Numbered from the stretch's first letter, positions 20,589 through 44,121 are shown. The stretch: 64,000 nt of DNA from an uncultured Methanosarcinales archaeon (GCA_964561995.1 CAZLQZ010000002.1:38442-102441), one strand, 5' to 3'. Translations and numbers: made by a program. Notes: generated by a model not told the origin, from the sequence alone.

Positions 20589-20629
20589 TTCCATAACTTT
20601 TATAAACTAATTCTCTTTTTGAAGATTAT

Positions 20630-22610: not shown

Positions 22611-23061
22611 AACGGCCATTGTAAAAGATAGTAAAATTGGTAATGGAACCAAAATCTGGGAGTTTGCTAATATTTATGGTACTGAGATTGATAAAAATTG
22701 TAATATTGGTGCATATGTTGAAATTCAAAGTAATTCTAAGATAGGTAAAAATGTAATTATTTCTTCTCATTCTTTTATTTGTTCATTAGTTACAGTTGAA
22801 GATGATGTTTTTATAGGTCATGGAGTTATGACAATAAATGATTTACATCCTCCTTCAAGAAGAAAAACAGGTAGTGAAGAAACATGGAAATCAACTTTAA
22901 TTAAGAAAGGTGCAAGTATTGGAAGTAATGTGACTTTATTTCCTGTAGTAATTGGTGAAAATGCAGTTGTTGGTGCTGGAGCAGTTGTCACTAAAGATGT
23001 TCCGCCAAATAGTACGGTGGTTGGTAATCCTGCTAAAATAATTCGGACGGTAAAATCATGA
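22591..23061 (+). CDS. hexapeptide-repeat (LbH) acetyltransferase, WbpD-like
   Basis: Repeated [LIV]G hexapeptide pattern. 156 aa. Located between the oxidoreductase and the DegT aminotransferase. Confidence 0.6.
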   Translation: MNVQIAETAIVKDSKIGNGTKIWEFANIYGTEIDKNCNIGAYVEIQSNSKIGKNVIISSHSFICSLVTVEDDVFIGHGVMTINDLHPPSRRKTGSEETWKSTLIKKGASIGSNVTLFPVVIGENAVVGAGAVVTKDVPPNSTVVGNPAKIIRTVKS

Positions 23062-26459: not shown

Positions 26460-27583
26460 TTTAATTCTCCATAAATTTCTTCATATTTAGCAATTGTATC
26501 TTTCCATAAAAATTTCTTTTCAGGAAATTTGTCATATTCTTTATTAAAAATGCTTACTACTCCTGATGTAATTTCTTTTTCATTTCCTGGTTCAACTAAT
26601 TTTCCTTTTCCAGTTATTACTTCCGGTAGAGAGGTCGTATTTGATGCTACTACCGGTTTTCCTAAGCTACAGGCTTCTACACAAGTATAACCAAATCCTT
26701 CTGAAAGTGATGGGATAACAACACAATCTGCCATTATAACATAATTTGGAAGTTCACTATAAGGTACTGGATCAAGAATAACAACTTCTTCTTTAATCTT
26801 AAGTTCTTTAATTATATTAATCAATTTATCATATTCTTTTTTGTATGTTTTATCTTTGCTTAATATTAATACTAATCTTGAGTTTTTAATTTGTTTTTTA
26901 ATTAAAGGTACTGCTTTAATCAAGTATTCAAATCCTTTAGATGTTCCAGGTCTTCCGGATGCAAAATAAACAAATTTATTTTTCAAGTTGAGTTTATTTC
27001 TTATTTTATCTCCATTATATTTTTTTGGATTCCATTGTTCGTAGTCCATTCCATTATGAACAGTAATTACTTTTTTCTCTGGAATTTTTAGTTTAAGTAA
27101 TTCTTTTTTAGTTGAATTTGATACACAAGCATATTTATCAAAAGAAATATTATAAATTCTTTTTTCAAGAAAGTTATGAATAAAAGCAGAAGTTTTACTC
27201 TTTTTTGTAACATTTTTCCACAAATTTACCCAGACTTCATGGACTGTAATTAAAACTTTTTTCTTATTAATTTTTGCTCCAATCCATGCTGGTAAACTTC
27301 CAGTAAAAGTTGTTGTATGAACTAAATCATATTTTTTACTCTCTTTGATTACTTTTGGAATTGCAAATAATGTGAAGAAATATCTTGAATTAAATTTTGG
27401 AACTAAAATTCTTTCAATTTCTACTCCATTTAAGATTTCTTTTCTTTTAGTATTGGGTAATCTAGAAGTAATTACTTTAATTTTATGACCTTTTTTTGCT
27501 AAACCTTCACATAAATTTTTGAATACTATCTCTACTCCTCCTATGTGAGGTAAGTAATATTCTAATACAAATAATATCTTCAT
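26456..27583 (-). CDS. GT4 (group 1) glycosyltransferase
   Basis: SEGFGYTCVEACSLGKPVVAS motif. Confidence 0.7.
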   Translation of the reverse strand: MKILFVLEYYLPHIGGVEIVFKNLCEGLAKKGHKIKVITSRLPNTKRKEILNGVEIERILVPKFNSRYFFTLFAIPKVIKESKKYDLVHTTTFTGSLPAWIGAKINKKKVLITVHEVWVNLWKNVTKKSKTSAFIHNFLEKRIYNISFDKYACVSNSTKKELLKLKIPEKKVITVHNGMDYEQWNPKKYNGDKIRNKLNLKNKFVYFASGRPGTSKGFEYLIKAVPLIKKQIKNSRLVLILSKDKTYKKEYDKLINIIKELKIKEEVVILDPVPYSELPNYVIMADCVVIPSLSEGFGYTCVEACSLGKPVVASNTTSLPEVITGKGKLVEPGNEKEITSGVVSIFNKEYDKFPEKKFLWKDTIAKYEEIYGELK

Positions 27584-27619
27584 TTTAATAATTAAGAATA
27601 ATATGTATTTAAAGTTATC

Positions 27620-27958
27620 TTATTTTTTCTTTTCAGCACTATTAAATGCAATTTTTCTAACTAAATTTTCGAGTTTATTATTATTTTTTTTAACAATTAA
27701 ATAGTTTTGGATAGTTAATGCAGTTAAAAATAAAAACCCAAGTACTGTAAAAAAATCCATTGTTCTTGATATAGACAAGCTTTCTACAATAAAATCTAAA
27801 GACCCTGGAAAAAGAGTAACAAAACCAAATAAAACCCAAATTAATAACCAAAACATTAATTCTGGTTTACTAAATTCTTTTCTTTTATAATGTAAGAACG
27901 TAAAGTACATAATTCCTATTGCAAATAATAACCCTATAATTTGTATTCCTAATAACAT
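27620..27958 (-). CDS. small 3-4 TM membrane protein (GtrA/DUF2304-like partner of the GT2)
   Basis: 112 aa, hydrophobic, immediately adjacent to a dolichyl-phosphate-type GT2. Confidence 0.3.
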   Translation of the reverse strand: MLLGIQIIGLLFAIGIMYFTFLHYKRKEFSKPELMFWLLIWVLFGFVTLFPGSLDFIVESLSISRTMDFFTVLGFLFLTALTIQNYLIVKKNNNKLENLVRKIAFNSAEKKK

Positions 27959-27959
27959 T

Positions 27960-28631
27960 TTATAATGAAAACAACCTCCACTTTATTAAGTTTATTCCTA
28001 CTTTTAATCCATCCATGATTGTTGTGCCTTTATATTTGTCTCCGTAGATAGTACTGATTGGTACTTCACAATATTTGATTTTTCTATTTCCTGCACGAGC
28101 AATCATTTCTGATTCCATTGAATAATCATTTGCTTTCCACCTAATTTTTTTATAAGTTTTGGAAGTAAATGCTCTAAACCCTGATTGAGTATCTCTTAAT
28201 TTTATGCCATAAAAAATTGTAGTTAATTTATTAATTCCAAAATTGCCTATTCTAAATAGTAGTGGCATTCTTGCTGATAACTCTCTATATCCAAAAACTA
28301 AATCATACTTTTCTAATGCTTTAATGAAATTAGGAATTAATTTTGGATCGTGTTGTCCATCAGCATCAACAACTACAATTGCTTTTGCATTTTTTTGAAT
28401 TGCATAATCACATCCTGTTTTCAATGCAGCTCCTTTTCCCAAATTTACAATGTGTTTTAATACAATAGTTCCTTTTTCTTTTTTTGCAATTTCAGAAGTA
28501 TTATCTTTGCTTCCATCATCAACTACAATTACATTATTTACTATATTTTTAACTTCTTTTAGAACTTTTCCAATTCTTTCACCTTCATTATGAGCGGGTA
28601 TTACAACGAAAACATTATTTTTTTGTTTCAT
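27960..28631 (-). CDS. GT2 dolichyl-phosphate glycosyltransferase-like
   Basis: VFVVIPAHNE...VVDDGSKD...VDADGQHD motifs. Confidence 0.7.
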   Translation of the reverse strand: MKQKNNVFVVIPAHNEGERIGKVLKEVKNIVNNVIVVDDGSKDNTSEIAKKEKGTIVLKHIVNLGKGAALKTGCDYAIQKNAKAIVVVDADGQHDPKLIPNFIKALEKYDLVFGYRELSARMPLLFRIGNFGINKLTTIFYGIKLRDTQSGFRAFTSKTYKKIRWKANDYSMESEMIARAGNRKIKYCEVPISTIYGDKYKGTTIMDGLKVGINLIKWRLFSL

Positions 28632-28642
28632 TATTATTTAAG

Positions 28643-31486
28643 TTAATTTGTTATTGATTCATTAATGTTTGTTTTAAAATAAACATTGTTCTTTGAGTTA
28701 CATTCCCAATCAACACTGTAAACATAAATTTTTCCACCCGTTATTTGTGTTTGTTCATCAAATAAGTTGAAACATTTTAAACCATGTCCTTGAGTAAAAA
28801 ACATTCTTGTAAACATACCATTGACTAATAATGGGTCTGTAAACATCATTTTATATGTGTTTCCGATTGGAATAATTAAAGCAGAAACTCCTATTTTGGA
28901 ATCGTTATACTTAATTTCATTACTTCCATTTTCATTCATGTAAACACTTGATGAAATGTGAATTTTTTCATCTCCTTGTAATACATAAGTTTCTTTTGAA
29001 GTTGTGTTAAAAATTAAAGGTATTTGATTTCCATTAAGTGTATTTACACATTGAAATGTTTCATCATTAACTTTTTGACAAGTATTTAAATTAGATACAT
29101 ATCCTGGCCAAGGACTAATCCATCTGTTAGCATCTTCTGTTCTTATTTCATCATAATATTGAAGTGCTTTTTCTTCATCTAATCCAAATTCCTCTTTTAA
29201 AATTGTAATTCCTTCTGATTCACTTTTTCCTTTTACTTTTTGAATCATTGAAGCTTTTTCAAAGTTCCAAGTTCCAAAATGCCCCCATACTCCCGATTTT
29301 CCAATCATATCTTCTGAAGCAATAACAAATGCTTCTGGAGGAGTACAATGAGAATTTTCAATAACTAAGTCTATTGTAGATTGACTTATGCTTTTGTTAT
29401 TTAAATAATTAATTGCTTCTTGTTTTTTCATTAAAATAATTTCTTTAATTATTTTTATACTTTGTAAGTCATTATTTAATTCTTTGTTAAGATATTTGTA
29501 TGCGTTGTTTCCGCCACAATCAATCATTCTTAAAATAGCTACTGATTCTTTTTCATTTGAAGTTTGTAATAATTTTCCTACCCAATGGGCCTGTGGTTTA
29601 TCTTGTGATGCACCATCAAAAGTTACTGATCTATCTGCAACATATTGGAACCAATGTCCAAAATCCCACCATGATGTGATGATTGCATTTTCATTAGATG
29701 AAATTTTAATGTTAGTTAAAGAACTCCACCATGCATCATTCATTGAAGGAATTTCATGAACTGCTTGATTATATCCTGCTTTGACTGGATTAATTAATAA
29801 AACAATTGCTAAAACAATAAAACAAACTTGTATAAAAATTTTGTTTATGTTTAATGCTTTTGGTATTTTTTTTGCTGCTAATTCATATAGTATTCCAATT
29901 AAACATCCAATAGCAATACTAAATGCTGGAACTAATAATAAAGTAAATCTTAAACCTTTTGTTGAACCATAAATTGTTCCTATAAACCAAACTGCTAAAA
30001 ATGCCATATATTTAATATCAACCTTTCCTTTTTTGTTTTTAATAAATAATGTTAATATTATTCCAAGAACTGCTAAGGCAAAAAATAAAGTGCCACCCAT
30101 TGCACTTATTGTTTGTTCTACTGAAGCAGGGTTTAATTCTGCAACTGTTGTTAAAACATTAGGCCAAATTTTTGTAGTTGCAACATCTTTAATATTAATA
30201 ATACTTAAAGGAAATCCTAAAAATGCATTGAAAAAATGGTTTATGCCTGCAAAAAAACCAGTATCATATAATATTCCAACTCCTAAAGTTGAAAAAATAA
30301 AGAATGGTAAACCAGTATTCATTAAATCTTTTATGTTTTGTTTAATTTCTTTTCTGTTTATAATTAATACATACATTAAGTAAATTATTATTGTTGCTAT
30401 TATAAAGTCAAATATGTACCACCATCCAGTCCAAAATCTGGAATAAATTCCTACACAAATTCCAGAAAGTGAACTTAAAATGATTTTTTTCTTTAATGTT
30501 TTAGCTTCAAAAGCTTCTAAAAATATCCAAGCAATTAATAATGGAAAAAATACATTATATGGGTCAGTGTCAGCAAAACCAGCCACTGTTCTTGTCATAA
30601 AAGCATTGTGAACAGCTAATAAAGTTGAACCTACTGTTGCTCCAAAATTTCCTGCAACTTTTTTAATTATAAAAAAACAAGGGATTATAGCTAATGTTGA
30701 AATTATTAATGGAACAAAGAATATTGCTCTTAATAAGTCATTATTGCCAAATATTTGTGATATTTTATATGTGAATAAGTTAATATAAATGTGCCAATTA
30801 TGGTCTGCTGGGTCTCCTAATGGTGCAACTCGATGATTGTTCCATGAAATTCCATCTCTAATTTCATCTCCTACATGACCATTTTCTATTAAATTTCTTG
30901 TATGTCTTGCATAATAATATGGGTCTATTGCTAATAAATAAGTTTGACCATCTTCATTTCTTAATCTTGATTTAAATGAATTTGCATAAAGTTCAATTCC
31001 TTGTTTGTAAGGTACTTGTGCAATTTGTCCATTTTGTGGTATGTAAACTTTATCTTTTTTTAGTTTAAACCATTCTTCTTCAATTAATTTATTTATATTT
31101 GCATCAGGTAAATTAGGATATTGTTGTTTAACTGATTGGGCAATAAGATTTTTATTAAAACTTTCAAGACTTCCTGCTGCGGATTCATCCATTAAGGGTA
31201 AGTGAGCGGGTTGAATTCTAATGAATATACTTAAAAAAATGGGAATTAATATTAATAATATAATTGAATATTTTTTTGTGAATGTTTGAGTCTCTTTCCA
31301 CCCTTTTTTGAAACTTTCTTTTACATCTACTTCATCATCGGATGTTTTTTCAGTTTTAATTTCTTCTTGTGAATCTTTTTTTTTTCCAAACCAACCTTTA
31401 ATTTTATCTTTTACTTTAGAAAAATCAATTTGAATTTCTTCATCTTTTTCTTTATGTTGTTGTTCTTCCATTTTTAAACCCCTCAC
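28643..31486 (-). CDS. aglB: archaeal oligosaccharyltransferase AglB (STT3 family)
   Basis: 947 aa. N-terminal 13-TM domain, WWDFGHW (a WWDYG-motif variant) and a large C-terminal soluble domain. Confidence 0.85.
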   Translation of the reverse strand: MRGLKMEEQQHKEKDEEIQIDFSKVKDKIKGWFGKKKDSQEEIKTEKTSDDEVDVKESFKKGWKETQTFTKKYSIILLILIPIFLSIFIRIQPAHLPLMDESAAGSLESFNKNLIAQSVKQQYPNLPDANINKLIEEEWFKLKKDKVYIPQNGQIAQVPYKQGIELYANSFKSRLRNEDGQTYLLAIDPYYYARHTRNLIENGHVGDEIRDGISWNNHRVAPLGDPADHNWHIYINLFTYKISQIFGNNDLLRAIFFVPLIISTLAIIPCFFIIKKVAGNFGATVGSTLLAVHNAFMTRTVAGFADTDPYNVFFPLLIAWIFLEAFEAKTLKKKIILSSLSGICVGIYSRFWTGWWYIFDFIIATIIIYLMYVLIINRKEIKQNIKDLMNTGLPFFIFSTLGVGILYDTGFFAGINHFFNAFLGFPLSIINIKDVATTKIWPNVLTTVAELNPASVEQTISAMGGTLFFALAVLGIILTLFIKNKKGKVDIKYMAFLAVWFIGTIYGSTKGLRFTLLLVPAFSIAIGCLIGILYELAAKKIPKALNINKIFIQVCFIVLAIVLLINPVKAGYNQAVHEIPSMNDAWWSSLTNIKISSNENAIITSWWDFGHWFQYVADRSVTFDGASQDKPQAHWVGKLLQTSNEKESVAILRMIDCGGNNAYKYLNKELNNDLQSIKIIKEIILMKKQEAINYLNNKSISQSTIDLVIENSHCTPPEAFVIASEDMIGKSGVWGHFGTWNFEKASMIQKVKGKSESEGITILKEEFGLDEEKALQYYDEIRTEDANRWISPWPGYVSNLNTCQKVNDETFQCVNTLNGNQIPLIFNTTSKETYVLQGDEKIHISSSVYMNENGSNEIKYNDSKIGVSALIIPIGNTYKMMFTDPLLVNGMFTRMFFTQGHGLKCFNLFDEQTQITGGKIYVYSVDWECNSKNNVYFKTNINESITN

Positions 31487-31512
31487 GGATTGTTTAAGAA
31501 TAAGTAATTTCT

Positions 31513-32568
31513 TTATAAAGTTTTGGGGACTAAGAGTAATAGCTTTGGTTCTTTTATTATTAATTGAATTATTACTTTTTTAAGATTATCTCTGTCTATA
31601 TTTGATATGATCTTTTTATTTTTTTCTTTTGATAATGTTTTTATCAAATAATCAATATCTTTTGAAGATAATTTGTCTAAGATTTTTCTTGCAATTAAAT
31701 GAATCCATAGTTCTTTTCTTACTTTTTTTAATCCTTTTTTATAGTTTTTGTTATTAATTAAACAATTTGCTAAAATTTTTGATGACATTAAACCTTGTAC
31801 AATTCCTCCTCCTGTTGTTGCTTTAACTAATGATGCCGCATCTCCAACAACATATGTTGATTTTTTTTGAAATATTTCTTTACTATTATATATAGGGATT
31901 AATCCTGCTTGTAATTCTTTATTTCTGTTCTTTGAAAATTTATTAAAAATGGTTTTAGCATTTTTTTGGTTTGCTATAATCCCTTTTCTACATTTTTTAT
32001 TATTTTCTGGAACAATCCATCCAAATTTACCAAATTTAAGAAAAACTTCTATATCATTATTATTTTTTAGATTAATAAGCTCTTGTATCCCCATAAAATT
32101 TTTATTTTTATTTTTTAAATATTTTGAGACAATTGAGTTTGGACCATCAGCTCCAATTAAAATTCCTTTTTTTATTTCTATTCTTTTATTTTTATTTTTT
32201 AGAATAATTTTATTTTTTTTAATTTCGATAAGTCTATGTTCTAGAAAAAACGTCACTCCTTTTTTTTTTGCTTTTTTATAAAAATGTTTATCCAATTTTT
32301 CTCTATCTAAAATTAAATCTGGATTTTTAAGAATTATATTTATTTTTTTTTTGTTTCCGTGAATTGTAAACTGATTTATTTTATTTACTATTATTTCTTT
32401 TGGTATATTTACTACGTTATTAATTTCATTAGTTACAATGCCAGTACATTGAACTGGTTTACCTACTTCATTGTGTTCTTCGTAAACATTAACTTTAAAT
32501 TTTTTTACAAGAAGGTATGCCAAATAACAACCAACAGGGCCTGCACCGATAATATTAATGGTTTTCAT
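31513..32568 (-). CDS. geranylgeranyl reductase-family FAD-dependent oxidoreductase (possible polyprenol/dolichol reductase)
   Basis: INIIGAGPVGCYLA FAD-binding motif. GGR-family length. Adjacent to aglB. Confidence 0.55.
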   Translation of the reverse strand: MKTINIIGAGPVGCYLAYLLVKKFKVNVYEEHNEVGKPVQCTGIVTNEINNVVNIPKEIIVNKINQFTIHGNKKKINIILKNPDLILDREKLDKHFYKKAKKKGVTFFLEHRLIEIKKNKIILKNKNKRIEIKKGILIGADGPNSIVSKYLKNKNKNFMGIQELINLKNNNDIEVFLKFGKFGWIVPENNKKCRKGIIANQKNAKTIFNKFSKNRNKELQAGLIPIYNSKEIFQKKSTYVVGDAASLVKATTGGGIVQGLMSSKILANCLINNKNYKKGLKKVRKELWIHLIARKILDKLSSKDIDYLIKTLSKEKNKKIISNIDRDNLKKVIIQLIIKEPKLLLLVPKTL

Positions 32569-32616: not shown

Positions 32617-32693
32617 AATCTTTATAAGTGATTAATTCTTTATTTCAATTTAATCACTATTTAATAATGGTAAACTGGGGTAATCTTTATAAG
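32617..32693 (+). promoter_or_regulatory. two copies of AATCTTTATAAG (TATA-like) 65 bp apart, upstream of the surface-protein gene run
   Basis: Exact 12-nt direct repeat at 32617-32628 and 32682-32693. Confidence 0.25.
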
Positions 32694-32751
32694 CTTTACT
32701 CAATTACCTTGATAAACTTATTAGGATAAAATATTTGAGGGGTTAATAAAA

Positions 32752-33612
32752 ATGAAAAAAGGATATATTGCTGGTGCTGTTGCTGGAGTTGTTATAGTTA
32801 GTGGTACAGTAGGAGTAGGATTAAATTCATTATATAATAAAGTACGTGGATCAGAAATACAAGGGTCTGAAAATCAACCTATTGTTGCTGTTGAACAATC
32901 TAAAGTAAATCAACAAGTTGTTTTACAATATGAAGATAGATTAAAAGATATGGAAGCACAGTTAAAACAAAGTCAAGATTTATTGGCAAATTCTAATGCT
33001 GTTGCTGATAATTTACAAAGAGAACTATATAAAACTAATAATCAAAGAACTCCTTTACAAGCTTTTTTTGGAACAAACAAAGTTCCAAAAAATTTGGATG
33101 CTGAAGACATGATTAAAGCAGGATGGGGTGGAAAATATATTTGTGTTGATGATAATGGAAATGCTGATATTTATCAAGATGGAATTACTTCACAATTTAC
33201 TGGTGGAATCAGTAGTATTTTAGCATATCCAACAAAAAAATTAAGTGATGTTACTCAAAAAGTTCCAGTTGTTAATTATTTAACTGCTGCAACTAATGGT
33301 ATTGTAGGTTCTACTGCTTATATCTTGGATGATGGTTGGATTGCATTGGATACTCTTGTAAGAGGAGATAAATCAATGGATCAAATTGCCGAAGAAGTTA
33401 AATTTGCATTAAATGCTTGTGATCCAAAAGATAGAAAAGTCGCTTCAATTCAATTAATTGGTGCTGGTGCCAGAACTTACTTAGCTATTAAAACTATTGA
33501 AGGCATCGAAGACCTTTTTGATTCAGGTGATTCAAATAATAATAATAATAATAACAACAACAACAATAATTTAGGCGTTGGTGGGAATATGAATGGAGGA
33601 GACGCTTTTTAA
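32752..33612 (+). CDS. N-terminally membrane-anchored coiled-coil protein with a C-terminal poly-Asn tail
   Basis: N-terminal hydrophobic anchor. Run of 13 N encoded by (AAT/AAC)12. GAGGGGT SD-like motif 8 nt upstream. Confidence 0.4.
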   Translation: MKKGYIAGAVAGVVIVSGTVGVGLNSLYNKVRGSEIQGSENQPIVAVEQSKVNQQVVLQYEDRLKDMEAQLKQSQDLLANSNAVADNLQRELYKTNNQRTPLQAFFGTNKVPKNLDAEDMIKAGWGGKYICVDDNGNADIYQDGITSQFTGGISSILAYPTKKLSDVTQKVPVVNYLTAATNGIVGSTAYILDDGWIALDTLVRGDKSMDQIAEEVKFALNACDPKDRKVASIQLIGAGARTYLAIKTIEGIEDLFDSGDSNNNNNNNNNNNNLGVGGNMNGGDAF

Positions 33613-33669
33613 TTATTTTTTTATTAATAATTAATTATACTATATGTATTGCGCATTTGGGGGTTTAAA

Positions 33670-35697
33670 ATGAAAGCATTAAGATTTATATTGGTGATGA
33701 TGATTTTGGTAGTTTCATCTAGTTTCGCTTCGGCTTATGTAGATGTTACATTTAATTTTGATCAAAATAATGTACAGTCTTTAATTTATAATTGTTTAGA
33801 TGAAAATTGTAATAACGTAGCAAGTTTTTCAGGTACTTTTGAAAGTGAAACAACAGATGGTAATTTAGAAGTAATCTTTCCATCAACATTAATGTCTGAA
33901 TTTGGTTATGCTGTTTATTTCTTTTCAGAAGGTTACATACCTAAAGAATATGTTTCAACATTTCATTCATATGGGGATGATGAACATTACGAATTGTCTT
34001 ATGATATAGATTTTAATAAAGTTCAAGAATGTCAATCTTTAATTGATGAATTTACTGTTGTTAAAGATACTTTTGCTTATGAACCTTTACAAATTGATGT
34101 TAGTTCTTCATTAGATGCAGTTACTGCTTCCGCATTTTCTTCAATAAATAACGGTGTAGGATATGTTCCACAAGAAATGAAAGATGAATATTATTCTTCT
34201 GATGTTGAAGTTGAGCTTGTAATTGAAGATCAAAATGGAAATGTTGTTAAAACTTTAACTGAAGATTTTACAATTTATATGAATGAACAAGCAGATGTTG
34301 AATTTTCTTGGACTCCAGAAGATGAAGGAAAATATACAGCAACTGTAACTTCTAATGTTATAGATTCACAATGTTCTCTTCCGACTTTAGATGCTAGTTC
34401 TGCAAAAGAATTTAATGTATTACCTGGCAGACCTACTAATGAATATTATACTATTTTAAACGACTTGGATGTTGATAATTCATATCCCGTTGCAAAAGAA
34501 GAATTAACTTTTACTTATACAAAAATTAGTAACTATGCTGATTCAAATCATGATTTAACTCCAGTTGGAACTGAAGTTATTTATTATATCTATTATAATG
34601 GTGATTTAATCGATTCTTGGAATGATGTATTAAATGCAAATTCTGATTATATGAATCCAACTACTCAAACATTTACTTACACTCCAGAAAACTCTGGTCA
34701 GTATGTTGTAATTGTTGATGGTGTGGCATCAGATGACTTGAATAATGGCAATCCTAATAATTCAGAAAGAATTATTTTGAATTTTAATGTTGCAGATGTT
34801 CCAGCTTATGAAATTAGTTTCCAAGTAAGAGATTCAGTGTCTGGAGAAGCAATTGAAAATGCTTTAATTACTATTAACGGACAAGTTTCTGGTACTACTG
34901 ATTTAATGGGTGCATTAACATTTGTAGGTCTAGAATCTGGAACTTATACTTATGTAAGTGAACATGATAATTATCAAACAAGAGATGGTAGTGTTCAAGT
35001 TATTAATGGAAATATGGAAGTTTATTTTACTATGGTTTCAACATCGATTGATGATCCTGTAGACCCAATAGACCCTGTTGACCCTCCAGTAACTACTGAT
35101 ATTACTTTTACAAATAATCCTTTAACAATTGCTTATGTTGCAGTACCATACGAATTTGATTTAGATGCAATAAGTTCTAATTCTAATTCAATTACTTTTG
35201 AAAAAGTAAATGGTCCCGATAGTTTAACTGTTGGAAGTAATGGCCAAATTGAATGGTTGCCATTGCCTCATGACATTGGTGTTCATACAGTTAAAGTAAA
35301 GGCAAATGATGGCTCAGGGGTTAATTATCTTGAATGGGCAATAGATGTTAAATCTAAAATGTCAGAACAAGACCCAGAAATTAATGAATTAAGTGTTATT
35401 CAAATTAGATTTCCAAATGGTTACTTAATCAAATCTGGAAGCGCATTAGCTGTTTCAGTGATGGTTGAAAATACTGGTGACTATGACTTAGATGATGTAA
35501 GATTACAAGTGTCTGTACCTTCTTTAGGTTTAATGAGAAGTGTAGGACCTTTTGATGTAGATGAAAATGACGAAGAACAAAGAACAGTAATGTTAGATAT
35601 TCCTAAAGGAGTTAGTGAAGGAGAATATGAATTAAGGATAGTGATAGGCAATGAAGACTATAGGGCTGTGAAATACAGACCTTTTGGGATTAACTAA
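33670..35697 (+). CDS. secreted acidic cell-surface protein (S-layer/adhesin candidate)
   Basis: Signal peptide MKALRFILVMMILVVSSSFASA. D/E-rich. DPVDPIDPVDPP linker. GGGGGT SD 7 nt upstream of the ATG at 33670 (the ORF track begins at an upstream TTG). Confidence 0.45.
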   Translation: MKALRFILVMMILVVSSSFASAYVDVTFNFDQNNVQSLIYNCLDENCNNVASFSGTFESETTDGNLEVIFPSTLMSEFGYAVYFFSEGYIPKEYVSTFHSYGDDEHYELSYDIDFNKVQECQSLIDEFTVVKDTFAYEPLQIDVSSSLDAVTASAFSSINNGVGYVPQEMKDEYYSSDVEVELVIEDQNGNVVKTLTEDFTIYMNEQADVEFSWTPEDEGKYTATVTSNVIDSQCSLPTLDASSAKEFNVLPGRPTNEYYTILNDLDVDNSYPVAKEELTFTYTKISNYADSNHDLTPVGTEVIYYIYYNGDLIDSWNDVLNANSDYMNPTTQTFTYTPENSGQYVVIVDGVASDDLNNGNPNNSERIILNFNVADVPAYEISFQVRDSVSGEAIENALITINGQVSGTTDLMGALTFVGLESGTYTYVSEHDNYQTRDGSVQVINGNMEVYFTMVSTSIDDPVDPIDPVDPPVTTDITFTNNPLTIAYVAVPYEFDLDAISSNSNSITFEKVNGPDSLTVGSNGQIEWLPLPHDIGVHTVKVKANDGSGVNYLEWAIDVKSKMSEQDPEINELSVIQIRFPNGYLIKSGSALAVSVMVENTGDYDLDDVRLQVSVPSLGLMRSVGPFDVDENDEEQRTVMLDIPKGVSEGEYELRIVIGNEDYRAVKYRPFGIN

Positions 35698-35801
35698 TAA
35701 GTAGTTATTTATTTTAACTACTACTGTATACTAAAATACATAAAGCTTTAAAAACATGCAAGAATTAACATTCAAAATTAGCATGGGGGTATAACAAGAA
35801 A

Positions 35802-37055
35802 ATGAAAGGAAACATAAAAATTGGTATTTTGTTGGTTTTAGTGGCACTATTAGCTATTGGTTCTGTTAGTGCATTACCTGACGTAGAATACATAAAAATT
35901 AACGGTGATCAGTATGAAAATGGTGATTCCGTTGTAGTTGAGAAAGGCGACGATTTAGAAATTAAAGTAAAACTTCAAGCAGATGTGAGTTATGACAATC
36001 TTGAAGTTGAAGCTGATATAATCGGTTATGAATACAATGATATTGATGAAATCTCAGACTCTACTCATACATTTGATGTAGATGCTGGTGATACTGTTTA
36101 TAAGGAATTAGATTTAACAATTCCAAGTAAAGCTGATAAAGATTATTATGATCTTAGAATCAGAGTTAGCGGTAGAACTGGATCTTCTGTAGAATATTTA
36201 ATGAGAGTTAATCTTAAAGGTTCAAGACATGATCTTGAAGTTAAAAGAGTGATGCTTCATCCATCTAATGCTGTTGATGCAGGTAGCTATTTACTAGTTA
36301 ATGCAAAAATAACAAATAGGGGAGAAGAATCCGAAGAAGAAGATGTAAGAGTTACTGCAAGAATCGAAGATTTAGATCTTGAAGACACTACTTATATTAA
36401 CGAAATTGAAGAAGACGAATCAAAAACTTCAGAAGAATTATTCCTAAGAATTCCAGCATGTGCTGAAGCAGGAATTTATGAAGTTGAAGTTGAAGTTGCT
36501 TATGATGAAGATTCAGAAGTAGTTACTGAAATTGAAACAATTGAAATAAGAGAATCAGATCTATGCAATGCTGCAGATGATGATACTGAATCCGTAATTT
36601 CAGTTGGTTCACAAACACAACAAGTAACTGCTGGAGAAGGTGGGGCTACTTATTCACTTTCAATAACAAATCCAAGCAACTCTGATAGATCTTATACATT
36701 AAGCGTTTCAGGTCTAGATTCATGGGGTACATTTAGAGTGGACCCAGCAACAACTCAAATTGTTAAAGCTGGTGAAACAGAAGCAATGTTCGTATTTGTT
36801 TCCGCAAAAGATGACGCAACAGAAGGTCAACAAAGTTTTGTTGTAAATGTTGTATCTGGAGACGAATCAGAAGCTGTTCAATTTTATGCAAATGTTGTTA
36901 AAGATGAAAGCAACATTAGAAAATGGGCAGAATTCGTACTAATTGCTTTGGTTGTACTGTTAATAATCTTAGGACTAATCGTTGGCTTCAGTAGAATGAG
37001 AAATAAACCTGAAGACGATGAAGACGAAGATCTAACAGGTCAAACATATTATTAA
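35802..37055 (+). CDS. secreted very acidic surface protein with a C-terminal TM anchor
   Basis: Signal peptide, extreme D/E content, C-terminal TM helix plus acidic tail. GGGGGT upstream. Followed by a hairpin/T-tract terminator. Confidence 0.45.
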   Translation: MKGNIKIGILLVLVALLAIGSVSALPDVEYIKINGDQYENGDSVVVEKGDDLEIKVKLQADVSYDNLEVEADIIGYEYNDIDEISDSTHTFDVDAGDTVYKELDLTIPSKADKDYYDLRIRVSGRTGSSVEYLMRVNLKGSRHDLEVKRVMLHPSNAVDAGSYLLVNAKITNRGEESEEEDVRVTARIEDLDLEDTTYINEIEEDESKTSEELFLRIPACAEAGIYEVEVEVAYDEDSEVVTEIETIEIRESDLCNAADDDTESVISVGSQTQQVTAGEGGATYSLSITNPSNSDRSYTLSVSGLDSWGTFRVDPATTQIVKAGETEAMFVFVSAKDDATEGQQSFVVNVVSGDESEAVQFYANVVKDESNIRKWAEFVLIALVVLLIILGLIVGFSRMRNKPEDDEDEDLTGQTYY

Positions 37056-37077
37056 ATATTTTTTTTTCTTTTAACAT

Positions 37078-37111
37078 CCAGTCCTGGTTATGCCCCTTTG
37101 GACTGGTTTTT
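37078..37111 (+). terminator. hairpin (CCAGTCC/GGACTGG) followed by T5, preceded by a T9 tract, after the acidic surface-protein gene
   Basis: Perfect 7-bp inverted repeat with a 15-nt loop, then TTTTT. T9 run at 37058-37068. Confidence 0.45.
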
Positions 37112-37127
37112 AAAGTTTTTTAAGGGT

Positions 37128-39185
37128 ATGAAAAACATGAAATTCAAGATTTTTTTAATATTATTGGCTTTTATATTAGTTCTTCCTAATGTATATTCTT
37201 TTGATACTTGGACTACTTCAGTTTCTTTATGTGATTGTGGTATTGATAGTCAAGAATTATATATTTTTAATACTGGCAAAGATAATACCTTCTTAATAGA
37301 TATTAGTGGTGATGCAAAAAATTGGGTTAGTTTATCTGATAATTCTATTTTTTTGGAATCTGGAGAAAGAACAAGTGTTAGTTTGAATTATAAAGTTCCG
37401 TGTGGAGGTAAAGATTCAAATATTATTTTTAAAGTTACTCCGCTTGGTGAACAATCAAAAGAATTAAATCAAAAATTAATAGTTAATGAATGTTCAAATA
37501 TTCAAATAATACCTATCAAAACATTTGATATTGATTGTCCTTGTAAAGAATTAGAGTATCAATTTAAAATTAAAAATACTGGATCTTTTCAAGAAAAATA
37601 TACTTTTGATTCTTCTAAATTTAAAGAAGAAATGATTTTTATTCCTTCAACTGTTTTATTAAATCCTGGACAAGAAGTTGTTGTTACAGCCGTTTTAAAG
37701 GCAGAATGCAAGGTATCTGGTAAATATTCATATGATATTAATGTTTTAGCAGAATATAATGAACTTAAGACCTCTTTTTCTGTTGGCGCTGAAATCAAGC
37801 CTTGTTATGGTTATTCCTTGTCTGCGGGAGAAATAGGGAGTTCATTTGAATCTCAGCAAGGTTTGTATAATGTATGTGTTGGAACTGAGAATTCTATTCC
37901 TTTGTTAATAACAAATGATGCTGATTTTAATAATAGTTATGATCTTTCTTTAAGGGGTAAGTTTGCAACATTACAAAATAAAAATGTTGAAATTGGTTCT
38001 AGTAAAAGTATTTTGACAAATATTTTATTTAATCCAGCTAATGTTGGTAATTATACTTTATTTTTAGAATCAAAATCAAAATTAGGTAAGTTAAAAGGAA
38101 AGTTTAAATTACCGATTATCGTTGAAGATTGTTACAATTTGGAAATTATTATGCCAAGTAAGGTTGAAGTGAATAGTTCTATTGTTCCTATCTTATTAAA
38201 AAACACTGGTACAAAGGAATTAAATGCATTAATTGCTGTATCTGGTAGTGAATTTGTTTCAGTTGATAATGGTGCTTTGACAATTAATGGTGAAAAGGTA
38301 ATTAATCTAGTTTTACAAGACCCGGGTAAATCACTGGTTGAAAATGTTAAAGTATCAGTACAGTTAGATAATGGTGATGTAAAAAATAAAAATTTAAAAT
38401 TGGTATTTGGAAAACCTTTCTTTTATACTTATGGTGTTTTTATTATTTTGGGAATAATTATCTTGATTATTTTAATTATATTTATTGTTTATGTTATTTC
38501 AAAGAGACCTAAAAAAGAAAAAATTAAGAAAGAAAAAAGAATAAAATCTATTGATCGAATTAAAGAGACAGTAATTGAAAATAAAACTAAAAAGAAAGTG
38601 AAAGATAAATCTAAAGAAAAAAAGAACTCCGGTTCTGGTTTTAAGATCTTTTTGTTTGTTGCCTTAATACTTTTAATTTTGATATTTATTTTTTCTCTTC
38701 CAATTCAAACTGTTTCGCCAAATTTATCTGAAAGACAAGTGGGAAAAATGTTAGAACAAAAATGGCCTGTTAATAAAATTTTAAGAACAGATTTAAATGA
38801 ACTTTTTTCTAATTCCTCTTTAAATTTACAATCTAGCGATAAAGTTAATGTTCAAATGATTGGAAAAGTTGCTTATTTATATCCTTCTTCTAATTGGACT
38901 GGTTCAAATTTTTTAGATTTAATTGTTAATAATAAGTCTGAAAAAGTATTTTTTACAATTGAAGGAGCTGTTAATGAAACTTATTTTCAACAAGGAACTT
39001 ATGTTTATGGTACTTTAAGTTATCTTGTTTATGATTATGTTAGAATTCCTATTGTTTTGATAATTGTTGTGTTGGTAATTATTTTGATTATTTTTATAAT
39101 TTTTAAAGCAATTAAATCTAAAAATAAACCTAAAAAAAGTAAGAAAAATAAGGATACTAGGCTGACAACAATAGTTGTTAAATAA
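37128..39185 (+). CDS. large surface/membrane protein with two internal TM segments and Lys-rich spacers
   Basis: Signal peptide (MKFKIFLILLAFILVLPNVYS if translation starts at 37137). TM helices at about residues 440-465 and 515-535 flanking a K-rich segment. The ORF track begins at an upstream TTG. Confidence 0.4.
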   Translation: MKNMKFKIFLILLAFILVLPNVYSFDTWTTSVSLCDCGIDSQELYIFNTGKDNTFLIDISGDAKNWVSLSDNSIFLESGERTSVSLNYKVPCGGKDSNIIFKVTPLGEQSKELNQKLIVNECSNIQIIPIKTFDIDCPCKELEYQFKIKNTGSFQEKYTFDSSKFKEEMIFIPSTVLLNPGQEVVVTAVLKAECKVSGKYSYDINVLAEYNELKTSFSVGAEIKPCYGYSLSAGEIGSSFESQQGLYNVCVGTENSIPLLITNDADFNNSYDLSLRGKFATLQNKNVEIGSSKSILTNILFNPANVGNYTLFLESKSKLGKLKGKFKLPIIVEDCYNLEIIMPSKVEVNSSIVPILLKNTGTKELNALIAVSGSEFVSVDNGALTINGEKVINLVLQDPGKSLVENVKVSVQLDNGDVKNKNLKLVFGKPFFYTYGVFIILGIIILIILIIFIVYVISKRPKKEKIKKEKRIKSIDRIKETVIENKTKKKVKDKSKEKKNSGSGFKIFLFVALILLILIFIFSLPIQTVSPNLSERQVGKMLEQKWPVNKILRTDLNELFSNSSLNLQSSDKVNVQMIGKVAYLYPSSNWTGSNFLDLIVNNKSEKVFFTIEGAVNETYFQQGTYVYGTLSYLVYDYVRIPIVLIIVVLVIILIIFIIFKAIKSKNKPKKSKKNKDTRLTTIVVK

Positions 39186-41245: not shown

Positions 41246-41696
41246 TAAAATGAAATGTCCTTTTTGTAATTCCAATGAATTAAAAGTTGTTGAAACTAGG
41301 GAATCGGTTGATAATCTTACGAGAAGAAGAAAAGAATGTTTTTCTTGTAATAAAAGATTTACTACATATGAAAAAATTGATTTGGGTAATATTTTTGTAG
41401 TTAAAAAAGATGGAACAAAACAAGAATTCAAAGAACAAAAAATCAAAGGGAGTATAATTAGAGCGTATGATAAAAGAAACTTTCCTGAAGATAAAGTTGA
41501 AAAGATTTCAAGAGATATAATTTCTAAGTTATACTCATTGGGTCAAAAAGAAGTTCTTTCAACTCAGATCGGAAGGATGATTTTAAGTAAGTTAAAAACT
41601 TTAGATAAACTTGCATATTTACGATTTAGTTATGTCTTTAACGATTTTCAAGACATTGAGAATATAAAAGAGGTTATTAAAAAAATAGAAAAATGA
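41223..41696 (+). CDS. nrdR: NrdR transcriptional repressor (Zn-ribbon plus ATP-cone)
   Basis: MKCPFCNSNELKVVETRE...RRRKECFSCNKRFTTYEKID is the canonical NrdR N-terminus. 157 aa. Confidence 0.8.
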   Translation: MCALQVVFKMKCPFCNSNELKVVETRESVDNLTRRRKECFSCNKRFTTYEKIDLGNIFVVKKDGTKQEFKEQKIKGSIIRAYDKRNFPEDKVEKISRDIISKLYSLGQKEVLSTQIGRMILSKLKTLDKLAYLRFSYVFNDFQDIENIKEVIKKIEK

Positions 41697-43531
41697 TTGT
41701 ATTAGAAGAAAGAAATCAGGAATTGCTGCAAAAATTCAAAAAGAAACATGAAGAATTTCAAAAATATAGTAATCTTGTTAATCATGTTAATATTGTAAAA
41801 AGTTATCTTGAAAATCTGGATTGGAAAGTTAAAGAAAATTCCAATATGAGTTTTTCTTTGCAAGGTTTAAATAATTATATTACTTCTAAAGTTACAACTG
41901 ATTTTTGGTTGTCAACAATTTATAGTGCGAAAATTGCCGATGCTCATAAAGAAGGCGATATGCACATTCATGATTTGTCTATGTTGAGTCCTTATTGTGT
42001 AGGGTGGGATTTGATGGATTTATTATTGAAGGGTTTTGGTGGTGTTTCAAATAAAATACAATCTTTGCCCCCTAAACATTTCAAGTCTGCTTTAGGTCAA
42101 ATTGTTAATTTCTTTTATACTTTACAAGGCGAAAGTGCTGGAGCTCAAGCATTTTCTAATCTTGATACTTTACTAGCTCCTTTTATTAGATTTGACAATT
42201 TAAGTTATGATGAAGTCAAACAAGCTTTGCAAGAATTTATTTTTAATCTTAATATTCCAACTAGGACCGGTTTTCAAACACCTTTTACAAATCTTACTTT
42301 TGATTTGAAATGTAGTCCAATATTTAAACAACTATTTGTAATTATTGGTGGAAAACCTGTTGATTTTAAATATGGTGAATTTCAAAAAGAAATGGATTTA
42401 CTGAATAAAGCTTTTGCAGATGTAATGATTGAAGGGGACGCATCTGGCAGAGTTTTTTCTTTTCCAATTCCGACATATAATATAACTAAAGATTTTGATT
42501 GGGATAATGAGAATTATGAAAAAATCTGGATTATGACTGCAAAATATGGTGTTCCTTATTTTGCTAATTATATTAATTCTGATATGAAACCCGAAGATGC
42601 AATGAGCATGTGTTGCAGGTTGAGATTGGATAAAAGACAATTAAATAAACGGGGTGGTGGGTTGTTTGGTTCTAATCCTTTAACTGGTTCGTTGGGTGTT
42701 GTAACTATTAATCTTCCAAGAATTAGTTTTATTTCAAAAAGTATGTCTGATTTTAAAGAAAATCTTTTATCTATTCTGGAATTAGCAAAAGATTCTTTAG
42801 AATTAAAAAGAGTAATCATTGAACAATTTACTGAGTTGGGTTTGTATCCTTATTCAAAATTTTATCTTAGTTCCATTAAAAAAAATCATGGTGAATATTG
42901 GGCTAATCATTTTTCTACAATTGGGATTGTTGGAATGAATGAAGCATTAATTAATCTTGTTGGCAAAGATATTACTAGTAGTGCTGGTTCAAATGCTGCA
43001 AAAGAAATTTTGGATTTTATGAGAGAAAAAATTTTAGAATATCAGAAAAAAACAGGAAATAATTATAATTTAGAAGCTACTCCTGCTGAAGGAACTTCTT
43101 ATAGGTTGGCAAATTTAGATAATAAAAAGTTCTCATTATCAAATTCTTATTACACCAATTCTTCACAATTGCCTGTTGGATTTACGGATGATTTATTTCA
43201 TGCATTAGATTTGCAAGATGAAATTCAGTGTAAATATACTGGGGGTACTGTGTTTCATGCTTTTATTGGTGAAGAATTGCCCGATTCTAAATCTGTAAAA
43301 CAATTAGTAAAGAAAATTGCTTCAAATTATTCTTTACCTTATTTTACTTTAACTCCTACTTTTAGTATTTGTTTACAGCACAATTATATTTCTGGAAAAC
43401 ATGAAATTTGTCCTACTTGTGGGAAGAAATGTGAAGTTTATAGTCGTATTGTTGGTTATTTAAGACCTGTTGATCAGTGGAATAAGGGCAAGCAAAAAGA
43501 GTTTTTTGATAGAAAGGAATTTTTAGTATGA
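41693..43531 (+). CDS. nrdD: anaerobic ribonucleoside-triphosphate reductase (class III RNR)
   Basis: C-terminal Zn site CPTCGKKC and glycyl-radical motif SRIVGYL. 612 aa. Confidence 0.85.
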   Translation: MIVLEERNQELLQKFKKKHEEFQKYSNLVNHVNIVKSYLENLDWKVKENSNMSFSLQGLNNYITSKVTTDFWLSTIYSAKIADAHKEGDMHIHDLSMLSPYCVGWDLMDLLLKGFGGVSNKIQSLPPKHFKSALGQIVNFFYTLQGESAGAQAFSNLDTLLAPFIRFDNLSYDEVKQALQEFIFNLNIPTRTGFQTPFTNLTFDLKCSPIFKQLFVIIGGKPVDFKYGEFQKEMDLLNKAFADVMIEGDASGRVFSFPIPTYNITKDFDWDNENYEKIWIMTAKYGVPYFANYINSDMKPEDAMSMCCRLRLDKRQLNKRGGGLFGSNPLTGSLGVVTINLPRISFISKSMSDFKENLLSILELAKDSLELKRVIIEQFTELGLYPYSKFYLSSIKKNHGEYWANHFSTIGIVGMNEALINLVGKDITSSAGSNAAKEILDFMREKILEYQKKTGNNYNLEATPAEGTSYRLANLDNKKFSLSNSYYTNSSQLPVGFTDDLFHALDLQDEIQCKYTGGTVFHAFIGEELPDSKSVKQLVKKIASNYSLPYFTLTPTFSICLQHNYISGKHEICPTCGKKCEVYSRIVGYLRPVDQWNKGKQKEFFDRKEFLV

Positions 43532-44004
43532 TTGGTGCATTTCAAAAATTAACTTTGCAAGATTATCCTGGTAGGGTTGCTTGTATAATTTTCACGAGAG
43601 GTTGTAATTTAAGGTGTAGTTATTGTCATAATCCTGATTTATTAAAAGAAGGTAAAAATATTTCTGAAATTGAAATTTTAAATTTTCTTGAAAACAGAAA
43701 AAATTTGCTTGATGGGGTTGTAGTTACTGGTGGTGAGCCAACAATTCATGGTGACTTGCCTAATTTATTGTTTAAAATTAAAAAACTGGGTTACTCAATT
43801 AAATTATATACTAATGGTACTAGACCTTTGATGCTAAAAAAGTTAACTGAAAAAAATTTGGTTGATGTAGTTGCAATGGATTATGAATTAAGTGATGAGA
43901 AATCTAAAAAAATTGTAAAAGAAAGTGGTGTTGAATATGAATTAAGGGTTCATTCTGATGAAAATGTAAAAGAAAAGAATGCAGTTTACTATGATATAAA
44001 ATAA
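43528..44004 (+). CDS. nrdG: anaerobic RNR activating enzyme (radical SAM)
   Basis: CNLRCSYCHN CxxxCxxC cluster motif. 158 aa. Translationally coupled to nrdD. Confidence 0.8.
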   Translation: MIGAFQKLTLQDYPGRVACIIFTRGCNLRCSYCHNPDLLKEGKNISEIEILNFLENRKNLLDGVVVTGGEPTIHGDLPNLLFKIKKLGYSIKLYTNGTRPLMLKKLTEKNLVDVVAMDYELSDEKSKKIVKESGVEYELRVHSDENVKEKNAVYYDIK

Positions 44005-44007
44005 ATA

Positions 44008-44121
44008 TGGGGATGTGAGGATTTGAACCCCAATCCGTCGGTATCTTCAAAAATCATTGACTTTCGTCTCATATTTCCATTGTTGGAGCCGACTATTCTA
44101 GCCAGATTATACTACATCCCC
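44008..44121 (-). tRNA. tRNA-Trp (anticodon CCA) with a ~40-nt intron 3' of position 37
   Basis: Reverse complement reads GGGGATG...CATCCCC-A (acceptor), a GG-containing D-loop, anticodon stem GTCGG/CCGAC with loop CUCCAA(intron)A, and T-arm TGGGG-TTCAAAT-CCTCA. The D-stem is weak and AT-rich, hence moderate confidence. Confidence 0.65.

Follow-up and report, generated by a model that had tools for sequence, protein, structure and literature searches.

A 64,000-nucleotide stretch of DNA from an uncultured Methanosarcinales archaeon (GCA_964561995.1, CAZLQZ010000002.1:38442-102441; hereafter the window) was analysed around a cluster of four consecutive genes, here called g1 to g4, whose products an initial annotation had described as very highly expressed envelope proteins and candidate surface-layer (S-layer) or host-attachment proteins. 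The window has a GC content of ~26%, and those homologues of its genes that had a named source came from metagenome-assembled genomes of Candidatus Woesearchaeota, Nanoarchaeota or Nanobdellota; the genes were taken to belong to a tiny, uncultivated DPANN archaeon of the Woesearchaeota. All four genes were present, co-oriented on the plus strand, at the coordinates originally assigned to them (Table 1). As had been proposed, ATG codons were the correct starts of g2 and g4, since public gene calls gave products of 675 and 682 amino acids (aa), respectively; the TTG codons at 33649 and 37098 in the list of open reading frames (ORFs) lie too far upstream. The cluster had also been placed downstream of aglB. 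However, aglB lies on the minus strand and a gene for a geranylgeranyl-reductase-like (GGR-like) FAD oxidoreductase intervenes, so that cluster and GGR-like/aglB operon are divergently oriented.

Extreme acidity, originally attributed to the whole cluster, was restricted to g2 and g3, while g1 is mildly acidic and g4 basic. The observation that two of the proteins are strongly enriched in aspartate and glutamate was confirmed for g2 and g3 (16 and 21% of residues, respectively), of which g3 bears a C-terminal transmembrane (TM) helix. These two proteins showed the lowest isoelectric points (pI) among the 54 ORFs of the window and net charges of -79 and -54, respectively. The GC content of their genes (0.31-0.34 versus 0.26) was elevated and that of third codon positions (0.13-0.14) was ordinary; the elevation was therefore attributed to amino-acid composition, and horizontal transfer was rejected as its source. 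Three signal peptides had been reported. In g2, g3 and g4 they were recognized as hydrophobic N-terminal segments with A-x-A-like ends, at which cleavage is presumed to occur, whereas g1 has a TM anchor instead. Signal peptides, TM anchors and ectodomains made up entirely of immunoglobulin (Ig)-like beta-sandwiches gave good support to an envelope location of g2, g3 and g4, and Pfam and NCBIfam scans of g1-g4 found no match to an intracellular protein family.

Table 1. Positions in the window of the g1-g4 genes, their putative expression signals and other features discussed in the text. SD, Shine-Dalgarno; energies of SD-like motifs are those of the predicted duplex with the anti-SD sequence.
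Feature	Position	Strand	Description
g1	32752-33612	+	286 aa, pI 4.8, mildly acidic
g2	33670-35697	+	675 aa, secreted, pI 4.05
g2 C-terminal domain	35389-35691	+	residues ~574-674; sole conserved part of the upstream neighbours of g3
g3	35802-37055	+	417 aa, pI 4.12
g4	37137-39185	+	682 aa, basic, pI 9.1
SD-like GAGGGGT of g1	32737-32743	+	8 nt before ATG; -8.8 kcal/mol
SD-like TGGGGGT of g2	33658-33664	+	5 nt before ATG; -9.6 kcal/mol
SD-like TGGGGGT of g3	35784-35790	+	11 nt before ATG; -9.8 kcal/mol
Weak SD-like AAGGGT of g4	37122-37127	+	9 nt before ATG at 37137; -4.6 kcal/mol
Promoter-like BRE (B recognition element)/TATA box of g1, AATCTTTATAAGCTTTAC	32682-32699	+	~55-70 nt upstream of ATG
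Promoter-like BRE/TATA box of g3, AAAGCTTTAAAAA	35742-35754	+	~50 nt before ATG
Hairpin past g2 stop	35700-35722	+	-9.2 kcal/mol, z-score -2.4; no T-tract behind; similar stem in related locus L001
Oligo-T run T9-C-T4	37059-37072	+	directly 3' of g3 stop; archaeal oligo-T terminator
Hairpin CCAGTCC...GGACTGG, then T5	37078-37111	+	stem 37078-37106, -14.2 kcal/mol, z-score -3.5
aglB (AglB/STT3 oligosaccharyltransferase)	28643-31471	-	own GAGGGGT SD at 31478-31484
GGR-like FAD oxidoreductase gene	31513-32568	-	between aglB and g1
Secreted TM-anchored reading frame	45123-47663	+	~846 codons, one in-frame TAA at 46611-46613

Structure prediction, which the initial annotation had proposed as a check, yielded all-beta, Ig-like models of both g3 and g2. 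The AlphaFold2 (AF2) model of g3 (predicted local distance difference test score, pLDDT, 88; 42-sequence alignment) consisted of a signal helix, three Ig-like beta-sandwich domains (residues 27-139, 145-250 and 265-366), a TM helix (371-400) and a disordered tail, and Pfam matches were to NPCBM_assoc/DUF4625, CARDB and FixG_C Ig-like domains. The protein has a mass of 46 kDa, with 44% hydrophobic residues and 1.7% cysteine plus methionine. Homologues of g3 numbered 84, and every named one came from Woesearchaeota/Nanoarchaeota; a narrower g3 alignment led to six genome loci in the search for related loci. When 1.84 billion representative sequences were searched with a g3 profile, 8470, 4246 and 973 matches were obtained at E ≤ 1e-3, 1e-10 and 1e-30, respectively, counted as clusters at 50% identity, and the top 150 were nearly all full-length (405-470 aa).

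Behind the TM helix, g3 ends in a tail (residues 401-417, window 37002-37052) that consists of an acidic linker and the C-terminus GQTYY-COOH. A YY-COOH end, mostly in the form xQTYY, occurred in 131 of 136 full-length g3 representatives that shared at most 50% mutual identity, and in this family the linker between the TM helix and QTYY was likewise acidic and ~8-17 residues long. The QTYY tail matched no known sorting signal and no known binding motif. Interpretation of the TYY end as an HbYX-like motif for docking to the proteasome was unsupported. From the type-I topology predicted for g3, the QTYY peptide would be cytoplasmic, and a near-invariant cytoplasmic end would therefore imply a conserved intracellular partner.

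In the AF2 model of g2 (pLDDT 85.5), a signal helix precedes six beta-sandwich domains, and there is no TM segment. Pfam matches were to CarboxypepD_reg, He_PIG/cadherin-like and, at the C-terminus, CARDB-like domains, and the protein (75 kDa) contains 45% hydrophobic residues and 2.7% cysteine plus methionine. A word-index search retrieved only 15 homologues, of 552-1116 aa. The C-terminal domain of g2, which combines a basic last strand with a strongly acidic protein context, was homologous to domain 2 of g3 (E 7.7e-15 with the g3-family profile). By BLAST, this segment matched the C-termini of proteins of 405-1749 aa encoded next to g3 in seven related loci (L002, L003, L004, L008, L010, L012 and L013). 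Overall, the g2-like neighbours of g3 ranged from 405 to 1749 aa, with a pI of 4.05-4.4, 2-122 cysteines and varied domain content. Those in L002 (2582-7831) and L013 (4532-7699) were giant proteins of 1749 and 1055 aa with 122 cysteines each, which show extreme diversification of the presumed outer subunit.

The layout of g4 comprised a signal peptide, a cysteine-containing Ig-like ectodomain of ~400 aa, a TM segment, a lysine-rich cytoplasmic loop, a second TM segment, a second ectodomain of ~100 aa, a third TM segment and a lysine-rich tail. Related g4-like proteins were 566-1053 aa long and contained FixG_C and HYDIN-type Ig domains, 3-8 TM segments and charged cytoplasmic loops; number and spacing of the TM segments were not conserved among them. 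The g4 orthologues were taken from the loci, and the word-index search gave only five hits, probably owing to low-complexity sequence. In g1, a TM anchor rich in glycine, alanine and valine (~residues 4-27) is followed by a coiled-coil-like stretch, a globular domain and a poly-Asn/Gly tail. Searches of g1 against Pfam, NCBIfam and PDB gave no match, and its homologues occurred only in the closest loci (L001, L005 and L006), at 28-29% identity where g3 showed 63%.

Comparison with locus L001 gave identities of 60% for AglB, 55% for the GGR-like protein, 63% for the amino-acid permease encoded beside the cluster, 63% for g3, 43% for g2, 41% for g4 and 29% for g1. By this measure, g3 is conserved as much as its housekeeping neighbours AglB and the permease. 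A g4-like protein was encoded 3' of g3 in 12 of 13 loci (documented as follower of g3 in L001, L004, L007, L008, L009, L011, L012, L013 and L014), the remaining locus, L010, ending at the g3 stop, and a secreted, very acidic, Ig-rich protein was encoded 5' of g3 in 10 of the 13. This order of g2-like, g3 and g4-like genes was kept down to 30% g3 identity. The divergent GGR-like/aglB operon was found beside the cluster in the window, L001/L006, L009, L010 and L013 and was missing from that position in L002, L004, L011, L012 and L014. In L001, L008 and L013, as in the window, the permease gene flanked the cluster. Across the loci inspected, no ATPase or secretion-system gene was consistently linked to it.

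A GAGGGGT or TGGGGGT motif had been reported before each of the four genes. Such motifs were found upstream of g1, g2 and g3, while g4 carries the weaker AAGGGT, the place of which is taken by GGGG to GGGGGG in the g4 orthologues of L001, L002 and L005; the g2 orthologue in L001 has GGGGG at the position that matches the g2 motif. The sequence GGGGGU pairs with the CCUCC of the canonical 16S rRNA 3' end through one G-U wobble. This canonical end, taken from general knowledge, served as anti-SD sequence for the energies in Table 1; an Rfam scan found no 16S gene within the window. Within the window, GGGGT occurred 3-12 nt before a real start in four cases (aglB, g1, g2 and g3), against a chance expectation of ~0.1 (Poisson P ~5e-6). 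Other SD-bearing genes of the window, of the GGTGG or GGAGG type, reached -8.2 to -10.2 kcal/mol and most genes ~0, so that the sites of g1-g3, which the initial annotation had called strong, were at -8.8 to -9.8 kcal/mol no stronger than those of other SD-bearing genes, ordinary operon-internal ones included. An SD of -7 kcal/mol or better preceded 11 of the 54 window genes and six of 30 that are likely to be first in their transcription unit; aglB, g1, g2 and g3 make up four of these six. The G-run sites of aglB and g1-g3 are thus real and unusual for unit-leading genes, and they are not exceptionally strong. The aglB leader (TGAGGGGTTTAAAAATG) is nearly the same as the g1 leader (TGAGGGGTTAATAAAAATG); the aglB orthologue in L001 lacks it.

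For g3, expression signals were compared between the window and orthologues in 12 other loci, with identities down to 30%. A G-run 5-9 nt before the g3 ATG was present in 13 of 13 loci and a promoter-like box was recognizable in ~8 of 13; boxes of the CTTTAAAAA or CTTTATAA type, with a presumed promoter function, lay ~50 nt upstream of the orthologues in L001, L005, L007, L008, L011, L012 and L014. Similarly, the 18-mer AATCTTTATAAGCTTTAC upstream of g1, a putative promoter, is identical upstream of the g1 orthologue in L001. At least five T within ~25 nt past the g3 stop were found in 11 of 12 assessable loci. In L007, T runs occurred ~55 nt past the stop, behind a hairpin; L010 ends 4 nt past the stop and was not assessable. 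Archaeal RNA polymerase terminates at oligo-T. Judged from these conserved signals, g3 appears to be a unit of its own, conserved and monocistronic, with a leader at one end and a strong terminator of archaeal type at the other.

The initial annotation had assigned termination to two hairpins with T-tracts. Both hairpins were predicted to fold, but the one behind g2 has no T-tract and is at best a weak terminator, and the conserved signal was the T9-C-T4 run after g3. The hairpins were therefore rejected as key terminators, the oligo-T run being the element conserved among g3 orthologues. The loop of the second hairpin holds GGTTATGCCCC, a TATA-like box ~50 nt upstream of g4. An identical stem is present in L007, and L001 and L005 keep GTTATACCC at equal distance from g4; covariation of the stem was uninformative because the stems are identical. 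A simple scan, which is uninformative for archaea, found no intrinsic terminators in the region, and a similarly uninformative sigma-70 promoter scan gave 58 hits versus 49.0 ± 6.2 in shuffled sequences (~1.5 standard deviations). The cluster would consist of three units (g1 with g2, g3, and g4), each with its own promoter-like box and leader, the G-run SD being strong in the leaders of g1-g3 and weak in that of g4; this is a layout expected of abundantly made structural proteins. These predicted signals fit abundant proteins, and high expression of the cluster is putative.

N-glycosylation sequons, counts of which measure glycosylation potential only, were scarce in the acidic proteins, with one in g2 versus 8.3 expected (p ~0.0005) and none in g3 versus 2.4 expected. 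Depletion extended to the g3 family (153 versus 352 ± 18 expected in the 136 full-length representatives) and to several g2 orthologues (0 versus 6-7 expected), but not to the g2-like proteins of L002, L008, P0089 and P0090 or to g4-like proteins. The window as a whole was unbiased (153 versus 151 expected), and g4 itself contains nine sequons, all but one in regions predicted to be external. The giant g2-like protein of L002 was sequon-rich (39 versus 17 expected). Beside the cluster, an island of glycosylation genes (~19758-32568) ends with the GGR-like/aglB operon; it encodes a methyltransferase, an NAD-dependent epimerase/dehydratase, a GFO/IDH/MocA oxidoreductase, a hexapeptide acetyltransferase, a DegT aminotransferase, three GT4 glycosyltransferases, DUF2304, GT2 and AglB/STT3 proteins and the GGR-like FAD oxidoreductase, which could be a polyprenol/dolichol reductase.

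We give about an even chance to the reading that the cluster encodes a conserved woesearchaeal envelope module, membrane-anchored and displayed at the surface, which probably forms a proteinaceous coat. In this module, g3 would be the core and provide membrane anchor, stalk and base. After Sec export and signal-peptide cleavage it would become a type-I membrane protein, with its three Ig-like domains directed outward as a stalk of roughly 10 nm and the short acidic QTYY tail in the cytoplasm. The polytopic g4, with its Ig ectodomains, would be the second constant partner of g3. A free secreted string of domains, g2 may dock to this g3/g4 base through its C-terminal g3-like domain and expose its fast-evolving N-terminal part as the distal surface, while g1 would be a lineage-specific membrane-anchored accessory. 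The module would thus follow the plan of SlaA/SlaB, a two-component S-layer in which a variable subunit on the outside is combined with a TM stalk that is conserved; the proposed topology and any lattice formation are predictions. Bulk properties of g2 and g3 fall within the limits quoted for S-layer proteins (40-200 kDa, pI 4-6, 40-60% hydrophobic residues and few sulphur amino acids; 10.1101/2021.04.28.441871), which are weak and non-specific criteria.

Several observations weigh against a coat-forming module. When g2, g3 and their family alignments were compared by phmmer and profile searches with all PDB chains, no solved S-layer protein was found at E ≤ 1, and fold matches were only to generic tandem Ig, macroglobulin (MG) or PapD-like arrays. 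No Pfam S-layer family scored among g1-g4. The claim that the proteins resemble no S-layer family therefore held for characterised families, but g3 showed sub-threshold similarity to NF033506, a "putative S-layer protein" family (residues 46-394 against profile positions 244-620 of 627; E 9.4e-21, 74.1 bits). This score lies below the cutoff of 110, and the S-layer role of the family is itself putative. The coiled-coil stalk of SlaB is absent from g3, the AF2 model of which has no long helix other than the TM helix. In addition, g3 had no g2-like upstream neighbour in L009 and L014 (L007, cut upstream, was uninformative). Archaeal S-layer proteins, including candidates from DPANN archaea, are typically sequon-rich, whereas g2 and g3 are nearly sequon-free, and a preprint reports that DPANN phyla including Nanoarchaeota use MSTP-like S-layer proteins (10.1101/2024.05.28.596244). 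Among eight secreted or surface proteins of the window that were scanned, none matched a family of this kind. Moreover, the window contains a further secreted reading frame (45123-47663) whose product has a signal peptide, Ig-like domains, a cysteine-rich acidic stalk and a C-terminal TM anchor. Its first 496 aa (45123-46613; pI 4.38) carry 33 sequons versus 14.8 expected, and the protein could be a rival candidate for a surface or S-layer glycoprotein. Its in-frame TAA could mark a pseudogene or be due to polymorphism or faulty assembly; truncated forms of 496 and 486 aa are listed in public gene calls from two source sets, on contigs of 154 and 107 kb. With no homology, coiled-coil or sorting motif and almost no sequons, membership of the cluster in any known S-layer family was not supported, and its S-layer identity is putative.

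The main alternative, which we regard as possible but doubtful, is a host-attachment or adhesin complex, in which g3 and g4 would form the membrane base and g2 a diversifying adhesin. In that case an S-layer, if any, would be built from another protein; tentative candidates would be the 45123-47663 glycoprotein with its many sequons and a protein of the MSTP/NEQ300 type encoded at another place in the genome. Variation of g2-like proteins in length, domains and cysteine content, with only the docking domain kept, and the adhesin-type character of the g2 domains (He_PIG/cadherin-like, CarboxypepD_reg and invasin-like) are consistent with this alternative, as are the MSTP-like S-layers reported for DPANN and the presence in the window of a separate, secreted, TM-anchored protein with 33 sequons. 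However, the gene for the latter protein is broken by a TAA in the assembly, the available preprint text does not specifically cover Woesearchaeota (10.1101/2024.05.28.596244), and in L009 and L014 g3 is present with no g2-like neighbour. Furthermore, g3 is widespread, of constant length, apparently present as one gene per locus and equipped with expression signals of an abundant protein; its spread, length and signals therefore suit a bulk structural component better than an adhesin base.

A functional membrane complex for uptake, pore formation or cell-cell transfer, with g4 as membrane component, g3 and g2 as scaffolds and the QTYY end coupled to a cytoplasmic machine, appears improbable. 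The invariant g3+g4 core, the 3-8 TM segments and charged cytoplasmic loops of g4-like proteins and the permease gene that flanks the cluster in four loci including the window would agree with such a role, and the intracellular partner implied by the YY-COOH end is not obviously needed by a passive coat protein. Against it, no transporter, ATPase or enzyme domain was found in g1-g4, the MFS, CitMHS and related matches of g4 were below cutoff and involved low-complexity TM sequence, the TM number and spacing of g4 were not conserved, and the loci share no linked ATPase or secretion-system gene. That the genes are unrelated secreted and membrane-protein neighbours with a coincidentally shared G-run motif is very improbable: g1 conserved only among close relatives, an aglB linkage missing in half of the loci and unexceptional SD strength would fit, but the notion is largely refuted by the conserved synteny down to 30% g3 identity, and the homologous domain shared by g2 and g3, the G-run shared by all 13 orthologues and the clustering of this motif within the window also speak against it.

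Sequon avoidance and the QTYY tail, the most unusual details of the cluster, can be accommodated in an extended form of the envelope-module reading, which we consider unlikely as a whole. The g3 family would then be the universal anchor of a non-glycosylated, two-component coat specific to DPANN archaea of the Woesearchaeales type, QTYY would couple this coat physically to a conserved cytoplasmic partner, for instance of the cytoskeleton, cell division or quality control, the hypervariable g2, docked by its g3-like domain, would set host or surface specificity, and sequon purging from g2 and g3 close to the aglB operon would reflect selection for a glycan-free coat. In this extended form, g4 and the 45123-47663 protein would be glycosylated while g2 and g3 are kept glycan-free.

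Woesearchaeota are among the most widespread uncultivated archaea. To our knowledge, neither an envelope protein from this group nor its mode of host contact has been characterised. The locus supplies a family-wide candidate set (973 clusters), namely an anchor that is conserved, an outer subunit that varies and a partner in the membrane. The avoidance of sequons beside aglB raises the question which proteins AglB serves in these reduced cells, and the near-invariant QTYY C-terminus that of coupling between envelope and cytoplasm. Should the four products turn out to be ordinary, moderately abundant surface proteins, the finding would amount to routine annotation.

Three other features of the window lie outside the cluster. 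On the minus strand, Rfam reported a tRNA over 114 nt (44008-44121) against a 71-position model (41 bits) and ARAGORN found none, which suggests a tRNA gene with an intron. The minus-strand ORF at 50499-52226 encodes a protein of 575 aa in which a signal peptide and two TM-like segments are combined with a C-terminal proteolytic domain of the Lon (S16) type; it may be a secreted or membrane-bound Lon-like protease. Translations from 41250-44004 on the plus strand contained a zinc-ribbon NrdR-like N-terminus and a radical-SAM CxxxCxxC motif, with a GGTGG SD before the first gene; by their appearance, they represent an apparent NrdR-like/NrdD-like/NrdG-like anaerobic ribonucleotide reductase operon.

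Among known surface systems, NF033506 (PACE-CTERM-PROT) is the only S-layer-related family with similarity to the cluster. The alignment covers the C-terminal 60% of the profile, corresponding to the Ig-like domains and membrane anchor, while g3 lacks the ~240 N-terminal profile positions and g1, g2 and g4 gave no match; no mention of PACE-CTERM was found in the literature searched. S-layer proteins proposed for DPANN archaea, namely NEQ300 (Nanoarchaeum), Micr_00292 (Micrarchaeum) and MJ1_0160 and MJ1_0707 (Nanobdella), are, like g2 and g3, secreted, acidic, multi-domain and beta-rich, and N-glycosylation genes are expressed alongside them (10.1101/2021.04.28.441871). By description, however, they differ from g2 and g3 in their length of ~1000 aa, their 13-17 or more sequons and, in some, MSTP/DUF1608-type domains. 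Neither DUF1608/TIGR01567-type tile domains nor S_layer_N/C domains were found in g1-g4 (E ≤ 1) or in three other secreted window proteins that were scanned. Haloarchaeal S-layer glycoproteins of the csg type share with the cluster a string of Ig-like domains, strong acidity and C-terminal membrane attachment. They showed no sequence match to g2 and g3, which are depleted in sequons, and no PGF-CTERM or archaeosortase motif precedes the TM helix of g3 (the sequence reads DESNIRKWAEF-VLIALVV); no NCBIfam CTERM sorting-domain model scored on g3. Any resemblance to the WxL/WxLIP complexes of Firmicutes, in another domain of life, would be one of layout only. A WxL match at threshold fell on generic beta-sandwich sequence, and inspection of the g2 C-terminal region revealed no W-x-L motifs. 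Woesearchaeal "S-layer protein genes" have been listed among the top-expressed genes (PMC11606122), a set that may or may not include g2 and g3, and a metaproteome paper on chimney DPANN names no surface proteins.

The closest parallel in organization is the SlaA/SlaB system of Sulfolobales. No sequence similarity to g2 or g3 was found, no SlaA or SlaB chain was among the top fold matches, and SlaA and SlaB are heavily N-glycosylated, whereas g2 and g3 are nearly without sequons. As with g2 and g3, the two genes are adjacent and co-oriented, the larger, anchorless, fast-evolving secreted subunit comes first, and both proteins are built from Ig-like domains (10.1101/2023.10.27.564410). Like g3, SlaB is the smaller and better conserved partner and carries beta-sandwich domains between a Sec signal peptide and a TM helix at the C-terminus. 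A gene pair of this style, represented here by g2 (675 aa, no TM segment) and g3 (417 aa, with TM helix), occurred in 10 of the 13 loci, and a pair of SlaA-like (anchorless) and SlaB-like (C-terminally anchored) proteins has been proposed for the related DPANN archaeon Nanobdella aerobiophila (10.1101/2023.10.27.564410). SlaA/SlaB genes also have a second promoter before the anchor gene and SD-bearing leaders, as predicted at g2/g3; the 5'-untranslated regions of Sulfolobus and Methanococcus S-layer genes raise reporter protein yield, with short SD motifs in Sulfolobus (PMC11627041). Beside these shared parts, g4 and the QTYY cytoplasmic tail are extra conserved components, and the locus adds a new and widely conserved case to the known Ig-domain proteins of archaeal surfaces and envelopes.

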